Assembly: GCA_037130925.1 (NCBI GenBank) | Contig: JBAXSC010000001.1 | Location: forward strand, 176,182-240,181 | Source of the DNA: Candidatus Nomurabacteria bacterium | Lineage (GTDB): Bacteria; Patescibacteriota; Minisyncoccia; Phycocordibacterales; UBA5272 | Reading direction: 5' to 3' | Length of the DNA: 64,000 nt | Shown: positions 2,529-38,718 of the stretch, in pieces | Layout of the letters: each line of letters starts with the position of its first letter | How positions within the stretch are numbered: the stretch's first letter is position 1 | Program-made: the position numbers and the translations under genes | Notes under the pieces: generated by a model | The model's database searches: none | What the model was told of the DNA's origin: nothing | What the model saw: the letters and a program-made list of their open reading frames with translations, nothing else

Positions 2529-4418
2529 ATGTCAAAAATTATTGGAATCGATTTAGGAACAACAAATTCAGCGGTGGCTATCATCGAAGGTGGTCAACCA
2601 AAAATTATAGAAAATGTAGAAGGATATCGTACAACTCCTTCTGTAGTTTCATTTTCAAAAAATGGAGAGAAGTCAGTAGGTATAACAGCAAAGAGACAAT
2701 CTGTAATTAATCCAGAAAATACAATTTATGGAGTAAAAAGATACATGGGTCACTCTTTTTCTGATAAAGAAGTACAAAATGATATTCCAAATGTTGCCTA
2801 CAAATTAAAAGAAGGAACTGGAGGATCAGTAACTGTGACTTTGGATGGAAAAGAATATCGTCCAGAGGAATTGTCTGCGATGATTCTTCAAAAAATAAAA
2901 TCAGATGTAGAAGCAAAGCTTGGTGAAAAAATTACAGAGGCTGTGATCACAGTACCTGCGTATTTTAATGATTCACAAAGACAAGCAACTATAGACGCTG
3001 GAAAAATTGCAGGACTCGATGTAAAAAGAATTATCCCAGAGCCAACAGCAGCTGCTCTCGCTTATGGATTTAATTCAAATAAAAATGAAAAGCTTGCAGT
3101 ATTCGACCTCGGAGGAGGAACATTTGATATTTCTATTCTTGAAGTAGGTGATGGAGTTGTGGAAGTTAAATCTGTAGATGGAGACTCTCATCTTGGAGGG
3201 CGCGATATTGATCAACAAATCATTAAATTTATTTCAGAGAAATTTAAAAATGAGACTGGTATCGATGTTTCAAAAGATCCTCTTGCAATACAAAGAATTG
3301 ACGAAGCTGCAGAAAAAGCAAAACATGAGCTTTCAACTCAATCAGAATCAGAAATCTTTTTACCATTCCTTGCAGCCGGACAAGATGGACCAAAGAATTT
3401 ACAAATGAAATTAACTCGTGCTGAGCTTGAAAATATTGCTCGTCCTTTTGTAGAAAGAGCAATTGAAATTACAAAGAGAGCACTTGCAAATTCTCCTTTC
3501 AAAAAAGAAGAAATCAATGATGTTATTTTAGTTGGAGGACAAACAAGAATGCCAATGGTTATCGAGGCTGTTAAAAATCTTTTTGGTAAAGATCCAAATA
3601 GATCAATTAATCCTGATGAAGTTGTGGCACTCGGTGCAGCAGTACAAGCTGGAGTTTTACAAGGTGATGTCAAAGATGTTCTTCTTCTTGATGTTATTCC
3701 ACTTTCACTTGGTATCGAAACAATGGGTGGTGTTGCGACAAAACTAGTTGAGAAAAATACAACTATTCCAACACAAAGATCACAAACTTTCTCAACTGCA
3801 GCTGACAATCAGACTTCAGTAGAAATTCACATTGTTCAAGGTGAAAGACCATTAGCGGCTGATAATAAATCTCTAGGAAGATTTATTCTTGATGGTATTC
3901 CTCCAGCACCTCGTGGTATGCCACAAGTCGAAGTATCATTTGATCTTGATGCGAATGGTATTCTTCAGGTGAAAGCAAAAGATAGAACTTCAGGAAAAGA
4001 GCAATCAATCAGAATCGAGGCTTCATCTGGTCTTTCAAAAGAAGATATTGAAAAAATGCAAAGAGAAGCAGAAGCAAATGCAGAAGCTGACAAACAAAAA
4101 ATGGAATTAATTGAAGCAAAGAATTTTGCTGATCAAGTAATTCATACAGCTGAAAAAGCTTTGAAAGATGCTGAAGGAAAAATTTCTGATGAAATTAAAA
4201 ATGATGTCACAGAAAAAAGAATTAATTTAACTTCAGTTAAAAATAATCCTGATTCATCTCTAGAGCAAATTAAAAAAGCTACAGAAGAATTGTCAGAATC
4301 AATGATGAAAATAGGTGAGGCTATGAAGACTGCAAATGATCAAGCAAATCCAAATCCAGAAAATCCAACTGGAGATGCAAATCAAGCTGATCAAAATTCT
4401 TCAGAACAAACTCAATAA
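2529..4418 (+). CDS. dnaK: molecular chaperone DnaK (Hsp70)
   Basis: [17 protein letters not shown]…, DLGGGTFD and [11 protein letters not shown] motifs. 629 aa. Confidence 0.97.
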
Positions 4419-4499
4419 TTGAAATTTTTTAGAGTAGAAAATAGAAATATTTTCTACTTGGTAAAGAATTTAATTCTGATATAATTAAAAAATAAAAAT

Positions 4500-4877
4500 A
4501 TGACACCAAAATTAAAAAATTTAACAATCTGTGAAAATGTTATTATTGCACAAAACAAAACAAGAAGTTATATTAATATTTTTGATAGAGTAAAATCTGA
4601 TTTGCCGGTTGTTTTTCCAAAATTTTACATAGTTTCATCAATTGAAAGTGATCAAGAAAGTGAAAAGTATATTGAAAAAATAGAAATAATAGATCCTGAT
4701 GGAAATGTTTTATCTAAGATCGAAGGTGATACACAAACTGAATTATATAAAAGTCATTTTATATGTCAATTTAATAATATAAATTTTCAAAAATCTGGAA
4801 AGTATTTAGTTAGAGTTTATATTAATGGTAGTGAAATAACAAATAGTAATGAATCTTTTGTTGTTGAAAATATATAA
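4500..4877 (+). CDS. hypothetical protein (small, soluble)
   Basis: 125-aa ORF wedged between dnaK and dnaJ. Confidence 0.4.
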   Translation: MTPKLKNLTICENVIIAQNKTRSYINIFDRVKSDLPVVFPKFYIVSSIESDQESEKYIEKIEIIDPDGNVLSKIEGDTQTELYKSHFICQFNNINFQKSGKYLVRVYINGSEITNSNESFVVENI

Positions 4878-27615: not shown

Positions 27616-28125
27616 TTAGATACTTTTAACTTTCACTTTCGCTAATTTTGCTTTATCAACTTTTGGTAGGCGAATGATTAGTAAACCATGTTTTTCTACA
27701 GCTTCCACATTTTCAATTTCTATTTCATGAGGAAGTAAAATACTTCTTGAAAATGATCCCCAGTATAGCTCACGATAGAAGTAGTCATCTTCTGAGATTT
27801 GAGTATTACCGTCACGGCGACCTTTTATTGTGACCATATCACGAGTAATTGAGATCTGAAGATCTTCTGGCTTTACTCCAGCAAGCATTGCTTCTATGAT
27901 CATTTCATTTTGAGTTTGATAAACATCTACAGATAGTTCACCATCTTCTTCTTCGAATTCTTCTGTTGGAGTTAAATTGCTAATTGTTCTCTCTGCTTCG
28001 TTGAATTTTTTCATTCCTCCTCTTCTTTCGATTTGGACTTCCATTTCTTCTTCCTCTGGATCAGTATCTTCAACCATTACAGATCCTGCAAGTCTTTCAA
28101 AAAATGATTTTTTTTCTTTTGACAT
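27616..28125 (-). CDS. small heat-shock protein (Hsp20/alpha-crystallin family)
   Basis: Alpha-crystallin domain …VTIKGRR…YRELYWGSFSRSILLPHEIE…EAVEKHGLLIIRLPK. Confidence 0.85.
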   Translation of the reverse strand: MSKEKKSFFERLAGSVMVEDTDPEEEEMEVQIERRGGMKKFNEAERTISNLTPTEEFEEEDGELSVDVYQTQNEMIIEAMLAGVKPEDLQISITRDMVTIKGRRDGNTQISEDDYFYRELYWGSFSRSILLPHEIEIENVEAVEKHGLLIIRLPKVDKAKLAKVKVKSI

Positions 28126-28269
28126 AAATTTAATAGTACCTAATTTTTATAAATAAAATCTAAACTAACTTTTTAATATTATATTTATTATACAATATTA
28201 TTTTAAATAGTATTAATAAAAATGCAAGAGTTATCCACAGTAAAGAAAAAATAAATTAAATTACAAAAA

Positions 28270-30558: not shown

Positions 30559-31224
30559 ATGCAAAAGAAAATGGTGATATTCGATTTCGATGGAACGATT
30601 TGGGATTCTATTAAAGAAGTTGAATTAAACAATATAGAAAAATTTAAAGAAGAATATAGAGGTCAAATTTCTATTTCAGAGCTTTATACTCATAATGTGA
30701 ATATTTTTTTTAATTTAGAAAAAAATAGAAAAGAAAATGAGAAAAGGTTGGTAAGTGATGAAGAATTAGAATTAGTAGAAAAAAGATATACAGAAAGAAA
30801 GCGATCAACTCTTCCTTGGCAAGGAGTAAAAGAATTAATGCAAGAGTTAAAAGATAAAAATATTTTAATTTCACTTTTATCTTTAACAAGATCTGGAAAT
30901 ACAGATCCTTTATTAGAAAAACATGATTTTAAAAAATATTTTTCAGATATTATTTTTGGAGATAATGTTTTAGGAAAAATTTCTAAAGTAGAAAATTTTG
31001 AATATCTTTTAAAAAAGAATAATTTAGTAGCTGATGAAGTTGTTTTTGTGACAGATACATTGAGTGATGTGCGTGAAGCGAATTCTGTAGGTATAGATAC
31101 TATTGCTGTGACATATGGTCAGCATAATAGAGAATTTTTTGAAAGAGAGAAAAATCAAAATGTTTTATTTATTGTAGATTCAGTATCTGAATTATCAGAA
31201 AAGCTATTAAATCTTATTAATTAA
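30559..31224 (+). CDS. HAD-superfamily hydrolase
   Basis: MVIFDFDGTIWDS motif I. Downstream D-rich motifs. Confidence 0.7.
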   Translation: MQKKMVIFDFDGTIWDSIKEVELNNIEKFKEEYRGQISISELYTHNVNIFFNLEKNRKENEKRLVSDEELELVEKRYTERKRSTLPWQGVKELMQELKDKNILISLLSLTRSGNTDPLLEKHDFKKYFSDIIFGDNVLGKISKVENFEYLLKKNNLVADEVVFVTDTLSDVREANSVGIDTIAVTYGQHNREFFEREKNQNVLFIVDSVSELSEKLLNLIN

Positions 31225-31232
31225 AATAATTT

Positions 31233-31820
31233 ATGATTTTAGATTTTAAAACTATTTTTAGTATTGCTGCGGCAATATTGGTTTTTGTGAGTTACTTCTT
31301 TTATATAAAAAGTATTTTAAAAGGTAATGCAAAGCCTCATGTTTTTACATGGGGACTTTGGTCTTTAATAGTTTTTATTTTATTTTTATTACAGAGATCT
31401 GGTGGAGCAGGACTTGGATCTTTACCGACACTTTTGGTTTCTATTTTATGTTTAGTCGTTTTGACTTTAAGTTTAATAAAAGAAAGTAATAAAAATATTC
31501 GAAAGATAGATATTGTATTTCTTATTCTTACTTTGATTTCTATTCCAATTTGGATATTGGCAAAGTCTCCAGAAATTTCAACTTTACTTTTATTAGTAGT
31601 TTATTCTTTAGCAGGTGAGGCAACAATTAGGAAGTCTTGGCTTGATCCATATTCAGAAACTATTTCTCTTTGGTCTATTAATTCTGTGAGAGCTATACTT
31701 TCTATTTTAGCTTTATCAAAATATACTTTTCTAACACTCGCATTTCCAACTTTAGTATTTTTTTCAGCAGCATCTTTTACTATTATTTTAATAATTAGAA
31801 GAAAAAATTTTAAAAAATAA
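31233..31820 (+). CDS. hypothetical multi-pass membrane protein
   Basis: 195 aa, 5-6 hydrophobic segments. Confidence 0.4.
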   Translation: MILDFKTIFSIAAAILVFVSYFFYIKSILKGNAKPHVFTWGLWSLIVFILFLLQRSGGAGLGSLPTLLVSILCLVVLTLSLIKESNKNIRKIDIVFLILTLISIPIWILAKSPEISTLLLLVVYSLAGEATIRKSWLDPYSETISLWSINSVRAILSILALSKYTFLTLAFPTLVFFSAASFTIILIIRRKNFKK

Positions 31821-31852: not shown

Positions 31853-32407
31853 ATGAAAAAAAAATTAGCAAAACAAGATAAAGTTTTAAAAAAAGTTTCT
31901 CCTCTTGCAAAAGATTTATCAAAAAAATTAGATAAGACAGTTTCAAAGAGAATGAATGCTGCAGAAAAATATCATTTACCAGATCATCATTTTAAAAAAG
32001 TTGTAGTTAAAAAAAGTAAATTTGGTCTAGGACTTTTTGCTGGTGAGAATATTAAAAAAGGTGAAGTGATAATAGAGTACATTGGAAATATAATGACAGA
32101 CAAAGAAGCTGATCAAATAGCTGATAGTAGATACATTTTTTGGGTTAAAAAAGATTTTAATATCGATGGATCACCACGATGGAATATAGGCAGATACTGC
32201 AATCACTCTTGTAATCCAAACTCAGAAAGTGAAATAAAAAAAGGAAGAGTTTTTGTAAGAGCGATAAAAAATATTAATCTTGGAGAAGAAATAGTTTATG
32301 ATTACGGAGAAGAATATGTAAAAGATATTTTAATTGCAAAAGATGGTGGATGTGGATGTGATGCGAAAAAACATTTGTATCATGAAGTAGTAAAAATAAA
32401 AAAATAA
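31853..32407 (+). CDS. SET-domain protein-lysine methyltransferase
   Basis: GLGLFAGENIKKGEVI (motif I), RYCNHSCNPN (NHSCxPN), EIVYDYGEEY (ELxFDY-like), post-SET Cys cluster GGCGCDAKKH. Confidence 0.8.
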   Translation: MKKKLAKQDKVLKKVSPLAKDLSKKLDKTVSKRMNAAEKYHLPDHHFKKVVVKKSKFGLGLFAGENIKKGEVIIEYIGNIMTDKEADQIADSRYIFWVKKDFNIDGSPRWNIGRYCNHSCNPNSESEIKKGRVFVRAIKNINLGEEIVYDYGEEYVKDILIAKDGGCGCDAKKHLYHEVVKIKK

Positions 32408-32602
32408 AATTAAAAATAAAAAATAATTTTTTAAAAAAATATTTTTATAAAAATAAAAAATAAAAAGTTATCCACAAATTTTTTTGCAAAAAGTATTGTA
32501 TAAATTTTTTATGAATGAGATAATTAATATTAAGAGAGGCAGACCGAAGGTCCAAGGTCAAAATTTATAAGCGCACTCTCATAAATATTTATATCTAAAA
32601 AT

Positions 32603-32692
32603 ATGGCAGCAAAGAAAAAAGCAGCAAAGAAGGTTGCAAAGAAAAAAGCAACTAAAAAAGTTGCAAAGAAAGTAGCAAAAAAGAAAAAGTAA
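32603..32692 (+). CDS. 29-aa Lys/Ala-rich histone-H1-like peptide (MAAKKKAAKKVAKKKATKKVAKKVAKKKK)
   Basis: Not in the ORF track (<60 aa). Periodic GCA/AAG/AAA codon structure unlike the surrounding AT-rich noncoding DNA. AAAAATATG start context typical of this genome. Strong terminator immediately downstream. Confidence 0.5.
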   Translation: MAAKKKAAKKVAKKKATKKVAKKVAKKKK

Positions 32693-32709
32693 TTAACTTT
32701 TTAAAATAA

Positions 32710-32747
32710 AATCCTCTGCGTCTCCCACGACAGAGGATTTTATTTTT
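32710..32747 (+). terminator. rho-independent terminator
   Basis: AATCCTCTG-12 nt-CAGAGGATT followed by TTATTTTTG. Confidence 0.75.
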
Positions 32748-32837
32748 GCTTATTAAAATAGTCTATATTCTGGTATAATGTATATATTATTAGTTATTTG
32801 AGTTTTGTATAAAAACATTAAAATATAAAGAAATTTT

Positions 32838-33203
32838 ATGAATATAAAAGTAAAAGGAACAGATATCGAAGTTACAGAAGCTATAAGAGATTATGCTGAG
32901 AAAAAAATAGGTGAAACTTTAAAAAAGTTTAATAGTTCTTCAAAAGGAAATATTTTAGTAGAAATAGAATTAGGTAAAACTAATAATCATCATACTCATG
33001 GAGATAATTATAAGACATCCGTGACAATCACAGGTCTTTCAAAAAATATTTTTGTTGATGTTGTTAAAGATGATCTTTATGCATCAATAGATGAAGCAAA
33101 AGATAAATTAGAAAATAGATTAGCAGAAACAAAAGATAAAAAGAAAACTCTTTCAAATAAAATATCTTTAAAGTTTAAAAATCTTTTTAAAGGTAATGAT
33201 TAA
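32838..33203 (+). CDS. hpf: ribosome hibernation promoting factor (RaiA/HPF short form)
   Basis: MNIKVKGTDIEVTEAIRDYAEKK…VTITGL…VDVVKDDLYASIDEAKDKLENRL. Confidence 0.85.
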   Translation: MNIKVKGTDIEVTEAIRDYAEKKIGETLKKFNSSSKGNILVEIELGKTNNHHTHGDNYKTSVTITGLSKNIFVDVVKDDLYASIDEAKDKLENRLAETKDKKKTLSNKISLKFKNLFKGND

Positions 33204-38618: not shown

Positions 38619-38718
38619 TGTGGATAAAATTTAGTTTTATCTTTTTATGCGTGATAGAATAACTAAGTAATAAAAGCTACAGTTTTCTTATTTAAAAACA
38701 AAAATAATTATTAAAAAT

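Follow-up and report, generated by a model that had tools for sequence, protein, structure and literature searches.

A SET-domain methyltransferase gene and a conserved gene for a histone-H1-tail-like mini-protein are neighbours in a clade of CPR bacteria

The 64,000-nucleotide stretch of DNA analysed here (the window; contig JBAXSC010000001.1, GC content 27.6%) comes from a Candidatus Nomurabacteria bacterium of the Candidate Phyla Radiation (CPR, or Patescibacteria). It carries a gene for a 184-residue SET-domain protein, followed on the same strand by a very short open reading frame (ORF) for a 29-residue peptide rich in lysine and alanine (K/A). Around this short ORF, hereafter the mini-gene, lie a DnaA-box-like site, a predicted promoter, a structured leader and an intrinsic terminator, with hpf as the next gene downstream (Table 1). 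A first-pass annotation, made from the sequence alone, had named the SET ORF, the mini-ORF, a hairpin, a palindrome and the DnaA-box-like site, all of which are present where it had placed them, and had proposed that the two genes form an enzyme-substrate module. We consider it likely that they are instead two independent genes, conserved as neighbours in one Parcubacteria-type clade of the CPR, the first encoding a SET methyltransferase and the second a putative polyanion-binding mini-protein.

Table 1. Features of the SET/mini-gene region, in window coordinates
Feature	Position	Strand	Basis
SET-domain protein-lysine methyltransferase gene, 184 aa	31853-32407	+	Pfam PF00856, motifs, conservation in homologues
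DnaA-box-like site GTTATCCACA, containing the perfect DnaA-box 9-mer TTATCCACA (9-mer at 32468-32476)	32467-32476	+	consensus match, positional conservation
Predicted promoter of sigma-70 type for the mini-gene (TTGTAT and GATAAT, spaced by 17 nt)	32496-32524	+	read by eye
Structured element of the 5' untranslated region (leader)	32534-32580	+	near-invariance between loci, covarying stem
Mini-gene, 29-aa polycationic protein MAAKKKAAKKVAKKKATKKVAKKVAKKKK	32603-32692	+	homologous ORFs, codon differences mostly synonymous
Intrinsic terminator of the mini-gene	32703-32747	+	fold and T-run, complementarity kept across loci
Extended -10 element TGGTATAAT of hpf	32771-32779	+	sequence; TATAAT-like element recurs in L005, L007, L009 and L014
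hpf, next gene downstream	32838-33203	+	Pfam PF02482

The first of the two genes had been called a canonical SET protein, and rightly so. The whole of the Pfam SET profile (positions 1-105) matches its product, with an E-value of 4.8e-24 and 85.2 bits against a cut-off of 22.4. The protein begins with a lysine-rich extension (residues 1-50) that is its own in comparison with eukaryotic SET proteins and bears two conserved motifs, KQxKxLKK and LPDHHFKK; the SET core (58-152) and a post-SET segment (C167-x-C169-x4-H174) follow. The motifs for binding of S-adenosylmethionine (AdoMet) and for catalysis are GLG at 58-60 (G58-L-G60), RYCNHSCNPN at 114-123 (with R114, N117, H118, C120 and N123) and EIVYDYGEEY at 146-155 (E146-I-V-Y149-D150-Y151). 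Across 34 homologues the GxG, the NHSC, the tyrosine of the DY motif and the Cys/Cys/His of the post-SET segment are invariant. The post-SET cysteine cluster described in the first-pass annotation does exist, but as CGCDAKKH (167-174), with two cysteines and a histidine rather than three cysteines. This histidine is invariant in the clade, while distant, shorter SET proteins carry CxCxxC instead; zinc binding by the C-x-C-x4-H arrangement is putative.

Among solved structures the best relative is the SET domain of MLL1/KMT2A (E = 3.2e-13), in an alignment that extends through the post-SET segment, and the solved relatives as a group (MLL1/KMT2A, KMT2C/D, NSD and EHMT2) span E-values of 3e-13 to 1e-11. 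SET-N, SET-C and post-SET all align with the eukaryotic SET1/MLL, NSD and EHMT2 enzymes, from which the CPR protein differs in having 184 residues, no accessory domains and histidine in place of cysteine as the putative third post-SET zinc ligand. An AlphaFold2 model built on the 34-sequence alignment was poor (mean pLDDT 53, pTM 0.45). No family with a different known substrate, an outcome that the first-pass annotation had allowed for, claims the protein in comparisons with NCBIfam and with solved-structure profiles, and its sequence contains no signal peptide or recognisable secretion signal. It is an ordinary member of the SET family in which the AdoMet-binding and catalytic motifs are all intact, and it is probably cytoplasmic. 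Close homologues number more than 300, mostly from CPR metagenomes, and the remark that bacterial SET proteins are rare does not hold in this lineage.

Two routes led to related loci, which are denoted here by L and a number. Relatives of the SET protein with 54-86% identity gave nine (L001, L005, L006, L007/8, L009, L010, L011, L015/16 and L022/23), and the leader motif or the peptide gave L012, L013, L014, L017, L019/L020, L021 and L024; a contig scan with a single SET sequence yielded 4 loci and a metagenome scan for the leader motif 3. The records are labelled Parcubacteria, Nomurabacteria, Saccharibacteria and Gracilibacteria, and L005 and L006 derive from GROS21 groundwater samples. For the peptide search the profile was headed by the 57-residue variant of L006, since the 29-residue peptide falls under the 40-residue query minimum. 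Most profile matches fell in low-complexity tails of proteins with no relation to the peptide, and the analysis kept just the matches that have MAAKKKAAKK.

The mini-gene starts 195 nt past the SET stop codon. Its product consists of 17 Lys, 8 Ala, 2 Val, 1 Thr and 1 Met (59% Lys, 28% Ala) in (V/A)AKK-type repeats, has a charge of about +17, and contains no hydrophobic segment or signal peptide. A scan of all six frames of the window shows no other K/A-rich ORF, and 200 first-order Markov simulations of the same sequence did not produce one either. Homologous mini-ORFs of 24 to 57 residues were found in 17 related CPR loci ranging in GC content from 25% to 46%, and every insertion or deletion among them is in frame. 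Varying codons (AAA/AAG, GCA/GCT) encode an almost invariant N-terminus, M[A/V/P]AKKKA[A/V]KK: pairwise comparison of codons 2-10 gave 133 synonymous against 37 non-synonymous differences, the latter confined to codons 2 and 8. This N-terminal decapeptide is much more constrained than the remainder of the peptide. The first-pass annotation had taken the short ORF for a gene and had suggested the comparison of synonymous with non-synonymous change; the gene stands, and the comparison indicates conserved coding. Its pattern of sequence change marks the mini-ORF as a genuine protein-coding gene that is conserved and, like SET, under purifying selection; going by composition and the family searches, the mini-genes form a new, unannotated family of H1-tail-like proteins. 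As an identity for its product, the ribosomal proteins L34, L36, bS22 and Thx were considered and set aside: the peptide bears no resemblance to them, and Pfam and NCBIfam returned nothing.

Public gene callers do call the mini-gene, frequently with a start that is over-extended upstream into the leader. Such calls underlie the public protein clusters P0127, P0128, P0130, P0138, P0144, P0151 and P0163, where the conserved leader RNA is turned into a spurious conserved N-terminus (for example ...LSDLHNKNIF-MAAKKK). In some assemblies, such as L007, L011 and L022, the mini-gene is not called at all.

The expression signals of the mini-gene are conserved too. A gap of 19 nt separates the DnaA-box-like 9-mer from the predicted -35 hexamer downstream of it, and every relative has the box in the corresponding place, the distant loci without SET among them (L019 and L024 have TTATCCACA, L021 has TTATCCCCA); from its match to the consensus it is a candidate site for DnaA binding. 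Two promoter blocks, GTATTGT and GAGATAAT, recur from locus to locus as well, and the predicted transcript start falls near 32531-32534; the promoter was not among the calls of a simple consensus promoter scan.

The leader is nearly invariant between loci although the surrounding spacer between SET and mini-gene has diverged. Its outer stem pairs GAGAG (32534-38) with CTCTC (32576-80) and begins at about the predicted transcript start. Within it, an inner hairpin pairs GACC (32542-45) with GGTC (32556-59) around the loop GAAGGUCCAA, which bears an invariant GGUC. Six sequences have GACC/GGUC as their inner stem and six have GAUC/GAUC, while two others contain G-U wobbles; at one covarying position 7 sequences have U-A, 6 have C-G and none is unpaired. 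Pairing is seen in 87% of the inner-stem cells, as compared with 13-41% for slid positions of the partner, a count made after three shorter loops that MAFFT had misaligned (L015, L017 and L023) were padded by hand with two N each, an alignment choice of the analyst that leans towards the proposed structure. All leaders, the most distant ones of L019, L021 and L024 included, have a GGUC(C/G) loop. The palindrome GACCGAAGGTC noted by the first-pass annotation is present at 32542-32552 but is probably not the folding unit, as the covariation pairs GACC with the second GGTC. Rfam 15 gave nothing at gathering score for the leader or transcript, and in E-value mode only chance-level matches, on the terminator; with ARAGORN and Rfam both empty, tmRNA, SRP RNA, riboswitches and the raiA motif were rejected as identities of the transcript.

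Further copies of the box were seen elsewhere. A second perfect TTATCCACA box occupies window positions 28231-28239 (+), with TGTGGATAA as its minus-strand reading. It precedes the start of the small heat-shock gene hsp20 (27616-28125, minus strand) by about 106 nt, abuts a promoter-like site, TTGCAT-17-TAAAAT, and is found in the same place in L001 and L005-L010. One regulator may thus act on both hsp20 and the mini-gene, be it DnaA in the role of a transcription factor or some stress regulator. A third copy, at window position 38619 on the minus strand, lies beside a terminator-like hairpin. In L002, from a Moraniibacteria metagenome-assembled genome, four perfect DnaA boxes (two TTATCCACA, two TGTGGATAA) fall within about 570 bp (4294-4864), and a short SET gene lies some 1.1 kb downstream of them; the cluster may be an origin of replication or belong to the promoter region of dnaA.

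The mini-gene ends in a hairpin whose arms, AAAAUAAAAUCCUCUG and CAGAGGAUUUUAUUUU, flank the loop region CGUCUCCCACGA with its conserved core CUCCCA (32722-27), and whose fold has z = -4.9 against shuffles. All loci of the window clade share one identical hairpin. The stems of L011, L015, L017 and L023 have been wholly replaced yet remain complementary, and the loop stays ACUCCCA(C/U). Such a conserved loop is unusual for an intrinsic terminator, and it is missing in the SET-less loci L019, L021 and L024; base-pairing of CUCCCA with the leader was looked for, and none was convincing. A hairpin terminator also stands between SET and mini-gene in L006, L017 and L022, which, together with the mini-gene's own conserved promoter, speaks against co-transcription of the two. 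Past the mini-gene terminator, the extended -10 element of hpf implies that this gene is not transcribed by read-through of the mini-gene. Given these promoters and terminators, SET, mini-gene and hpf constitute three separate transcription units.

Conservation of the adjacency depends on how the loci were found. In all nine SET-fetched loci the mini-gene lies just downstream of SET, over the same range of GC content, with valS divergently upstream. The adjacency survives a change of downstream neighbour, from HPF in the window clade to SecA in L017 and unrelated genes in L011. Among the six informative loci fetched through leader or peptide (L012 is too short to judge), SET is nearby in three: adjacent in L013 and L017, and one gene off in L014, where a 212-residue gene has been inserted. 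In the others (L019/L020, L021 and L024) no SET match occurs in the 4.4-5 kb upstream or in the rest of the locus; the gene order is MurB, mini-gene, SecA in L019/L020 and L021, and RNR genes, a 160-residue gene, mini-gene, SecA in L024. Taken over all loci with a visible upstream region, SET is immediately upstream in 12 of 16. In the opposite direction, distant and shorter SET proteins from other CPR lineages (136-145 residues, 43-49% identity to the window SET) have no K/A ORF in view in L003 and L004, while L002 ends about 300 nt past SET and is uninformative. Conservation of the adjacency, which the first-pass annotation had proposed as a check, is complete among the close SET relatives and incomplete elsewhere, where there are SET-less mini-genes and SET genes without the ORF. 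On this distribution, the mini-gene predates its association with SET and is also found more widely than that association.

Downstream of the mini-gene, HPF is found in 10 loci and SecA within about 0.75 kb in 5 others. L015 has two short unannotated ORFs and then SecA, and in L022/L023 SecA is reached only past an inserted copper-resistance island. By gene order, the more persistent neighbour of the mini-gene across lineages is secA. The whole region (valS, SET, ORF, hpf, PPIase, fmt, def) is syntenic, and adjacency alone is therefore weak evidence for a functional link: it marks one large clade with a syntenic region, and is compatible with such a link without demonstrating it. The HPF of the window clade (window, L001, L005-L010, L012 and L014) is of the short type, 118-127 residues without the C-terminal dimerisation domain. 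Between valS and SET, the window holds two further genes (30559-31820), one for a HAD-family hydrolase and one for a 195-residue multi-pass membrane protein without family match. Both are missing in most relatives; valS directly adjoins SET in L006, L007, L009 and L010, and L005 has the membrane protein gene and no hydrolase. In several lineages the gene beside SET belongs to the translation apparatus: valS (window clade), HisRS (L003), a gene for a SpoU-type methylase (L004) and one for an RluA-type pseudouridine synthase (L002). Small genomes may produce such a pattern by chance, or it may point to a substrate in the translation machinery.

The reading that we favour joins these observations as follows. 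The SET gene would supply a cytoplasmic protein-lysine methyltransferase with a C-x-C-x4-H post-SET segment. The mini-gene, expressed as a monocistronic unit from its DnaA-box-like site, sigma-70 promoter, GGUC-loop leader and strong terminator, would supply a free-standing polycation of 24-57 residues, a Lys/Ala(Val) repeat protein resembling the C-terminal tail of histone H1. From its charge we infer that the protein most likely binds and neutralises polyanions, nucleoid DNA in the first place, with RNA, ribosomes or polyphosphate as possible partners; binding and compaction of DNA would follow from the same property. A strong promoter, a 5'-terminal stem-loop and a tight terminator would fit a short, stable, highly expressed mRNA. 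The product may be abundant and is most likely nucleoid-associated. The leader probably stabilises the mRNA or binds a protein, perhaps in autoregulation: the conserved RNA loops suggest a specific RNA-binding regulator or an autoregulatory circuit. Control by DnaA through the upstream box, and methylation of the peptide by SET, are likewise conceivable from the sequence.

Several observations weigh against this reading. The sampled loci are few and phylogenetically clustered. The mini-protein has no Pfam match, the 29-residue peptide of the window finds nothing in NCBIfam, and the 57-residue homologue of L006 reaches only E = 6.5 and 7 bits against the NCBIfam H1-like model NF038053, whose cut-off is 80; with no curated family matching, its likeness to H1 is therefore one of composition. 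No Shine-Dalgarno sequence was seen upstream of the mini-gene ATG, although the neighbouring genes mostly lack a clear one too. Finally, hpf and secA as neighbours fit a role in translation or at the ribosome as well as they fit one in the nucleoid.

Those neighbours make a ribosome- or RNA-directed function the main alternative to a nucleoid role. The mini-protein could be a partner of HPF, a functional analogue of RMF or a general RNA-binding polycation, and the position of the mini-gene immediately upstream of the short HPF in the 10 window-clade loci, together with the TTATCCACA box that it has in common with the stress gene hsp20, can be read in this way. H1-like disordered K/A regions can moreover be RNA-binding regulators of translation, as is reported for PhaF (PMC12818456). 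HPF is, however, not adjacent in L011, L015, L017, L019, L021, L023 and L024, it has its own promoter, and the peptide is not similar to RMF or to ribosomal protein families in Pfam or NCBIfam; we regard a function of this kind as unlikely. The proximity of the terminator to the short ORF (10 nt in the window, about 10-45 nt overall), with hpf or secA beyond, also invites the thought that the ORF is no protein gene and serves as a Lys/Ala-codon leader peptide in an attenuator of hpf or secA, or is part of a non-coding RNA, and the conserved 5' and 3' RNA structures with their invariant loops would suit such an element. The preservation of the N-terminal amino acids through synonymous change and the in-frame length variation from 24 to 57 residues argue for a protein, hpf has its own extended -10 promoter past the terminator, no alternative antiterminator pairing is evident in the fold, and no Rfam family matches; either of these roles is very improbable indeed.

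The proposal of the first-pass annotation was that SET methylates lysines of the adjacent peptide, tuning its charge or binding in a minimal system of chromatin marks; the recognition site would be the invariant N-terminus after removal of methionine, AAKKKAAKK. It gains from the adjacency in nine of nine SET-fetched loci (at least 54% identity) despite changes of neighbour and of GC content, from the greater constraint on the N-terminal decapeptide, from the fact that the closest solved SET relatives are the tail-methylating histone enzymes MLL, NSD and EHMT2, and from the precedents of cpnSET with Hc1, BaSET with H1 and Go1-SET with MC1-alpha (PMC3980110). The two genes are real and their adjacency is kept in the clade, but each is transcribed as a unit of its own. 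In three relatives a terminator separates them and in L014 an inserted gene does, and mini-genes with the same box and GGUC leader occur with no SET in the 4.4-5 kb upstream (L019, L021, L024). SET is, besides, as tightly linked to valS, its distant relatives beside HisRS, SpoU and RluA have no K/A ORF, and in a syntenic region the adjacency may be inherited rather than selected. The idea is plausible, neither supported nor refuted by the present sequence analysis, and we hold it to be possible, if somewhat improbable. A more ambitious version, in which the polycation coats the genome as a minimal 'tail-only' chromatin system, with expression tied to the DnaA box, autoregulation through GGUC and methylation of AAKKKAAKK by SET, is doubtful. 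Lysines 4 and 9 of the histone H3 tail (ARTKQTARKS) have the same spacing as lysines in AAKKKAAKK. Alternatively, SET could be an effector directed against host-cell proteins, as in Legionella, Chlamydia and Bacillus anthracis, and its position beside the mini-gene a coincidence. CPR bacteria are host-dependent epibionts, which would suit an effector, and NCBIfam returns a weak match to LegAS4, an effector of Legionella. Host histones are the targets of most bacterial SET proteins so far characterised (PMC3980110). Yet the LegAS4 match scores 36 bits against a cut-off of 550, the protein lacks any secretion signal of the kinds sought, and its place beside valS is housekeeping-like and stably inherited rather than island-like, all of which makes an effector quite unlikely.

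Action of SET enzymes on endogenous chromatin proteins is already known in bacteria and archaea (PMC3980110). Chlamydial cpnSET methylates the H1-like Hc1 (Murata et al. 2007, reviewed in PMC3980110), BaSET methylates H1 and Go1-SET methylates MC1-alpha (PMC3980110). The chlamydial system resembles the CPR pair in combining a bacterial SET enzyme with endogenous Lys/Ala-rich, H1-like DNA-binding proteins, and the variation of the mini-protein in repeat number parallels Hc2, whose length varies with the number of lysine-rich repeats (PMC2848022). Hc1 and Hc2 have 125-237 residues, whereas the basic protein of the CPR has 24-57 and a SET gene as conserved neighbour; methylation is demonstrated for Hc1 and hypothetical for the CPR pair. 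To our knowledge, the genes for Hc1 and Hc2 are not adjacent to the chlamydial SET gene. Go1-SET with MC1-alpha is likewise a prokaryotic SET enzyme acting on an endogenous chromatin protein, but MC1-alpha is folded and has one methylated lysine, in contrast to the low-complexity CPR polycation without a globular domain.

AKK-type repeats and presumed polyanion binding link the mini-protein to AlgP and PhaF of Pseudomonas, the NF038053 protein of Burkholderia and DdbA of Streptomyces, all of which are much longer, usually have an added domain and give no significant HMM match to it. Known bacterial K/A-repeat proteins are reported to bind DNA (Hc1/Hc2, DdbA), polyphosphate granules (AlgP) or RNA (PhaF). 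We know of no bacterial H1-like K/A-repeat protein with the promoter box, leader and terminator architecture of the mini-gene. Kinetoplastid histone H1 consists of the C-terminal domain only, a free-standing, Lys/Ala-rich and proline-rich tail of about 60-110 residues without globular domain. The mini-protein is a free-standing Lys/Ala-rich tail too; the kinetoplastid protein differs in being eukaryotic, longer and rich in proline, and no homology can be demonstrated. Searches of the literature on SET proteins in CPR/Patescibacteria turned up no account of such a pairing, nor any of SET proteins or of such a mini-gene in these bacteria, in agreement with the first-pass annotation, which had not recognised the arrangement from described systems. 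New features are the very small size of the basic protein, the promoter box, leader and terminator dedicated to its gene, and the conserved position of that gene beside an MLL-like SET gene in the CPR.

If the enzyme-substrate relation were true, a two-component system of 184 and 29 residues would allow lysine methylation of a nucleoid polycation to be reconstituted with the synthetic peptide AAKKKAAKKVAKKKATKKVAKKVAKKKK, and would bear on the question whether SET-mediated chromatin marking predates eukaryotes. Were the tail-only chromatin system real, it would be a bacterial analogue of histone-tail methylation that tunes nucleoid compaction through the smallest known substrate. The mini-gene matters regardless of either, as a conserved and probably highly expressed small protein of ultra-small bacteria that automated annotation mostly misses or extends into its 5' untranslated region, and that is accompanied by a conserved leader RNA not described before and by a promoter element, similar to a DnaA box, that hsp20 has too.

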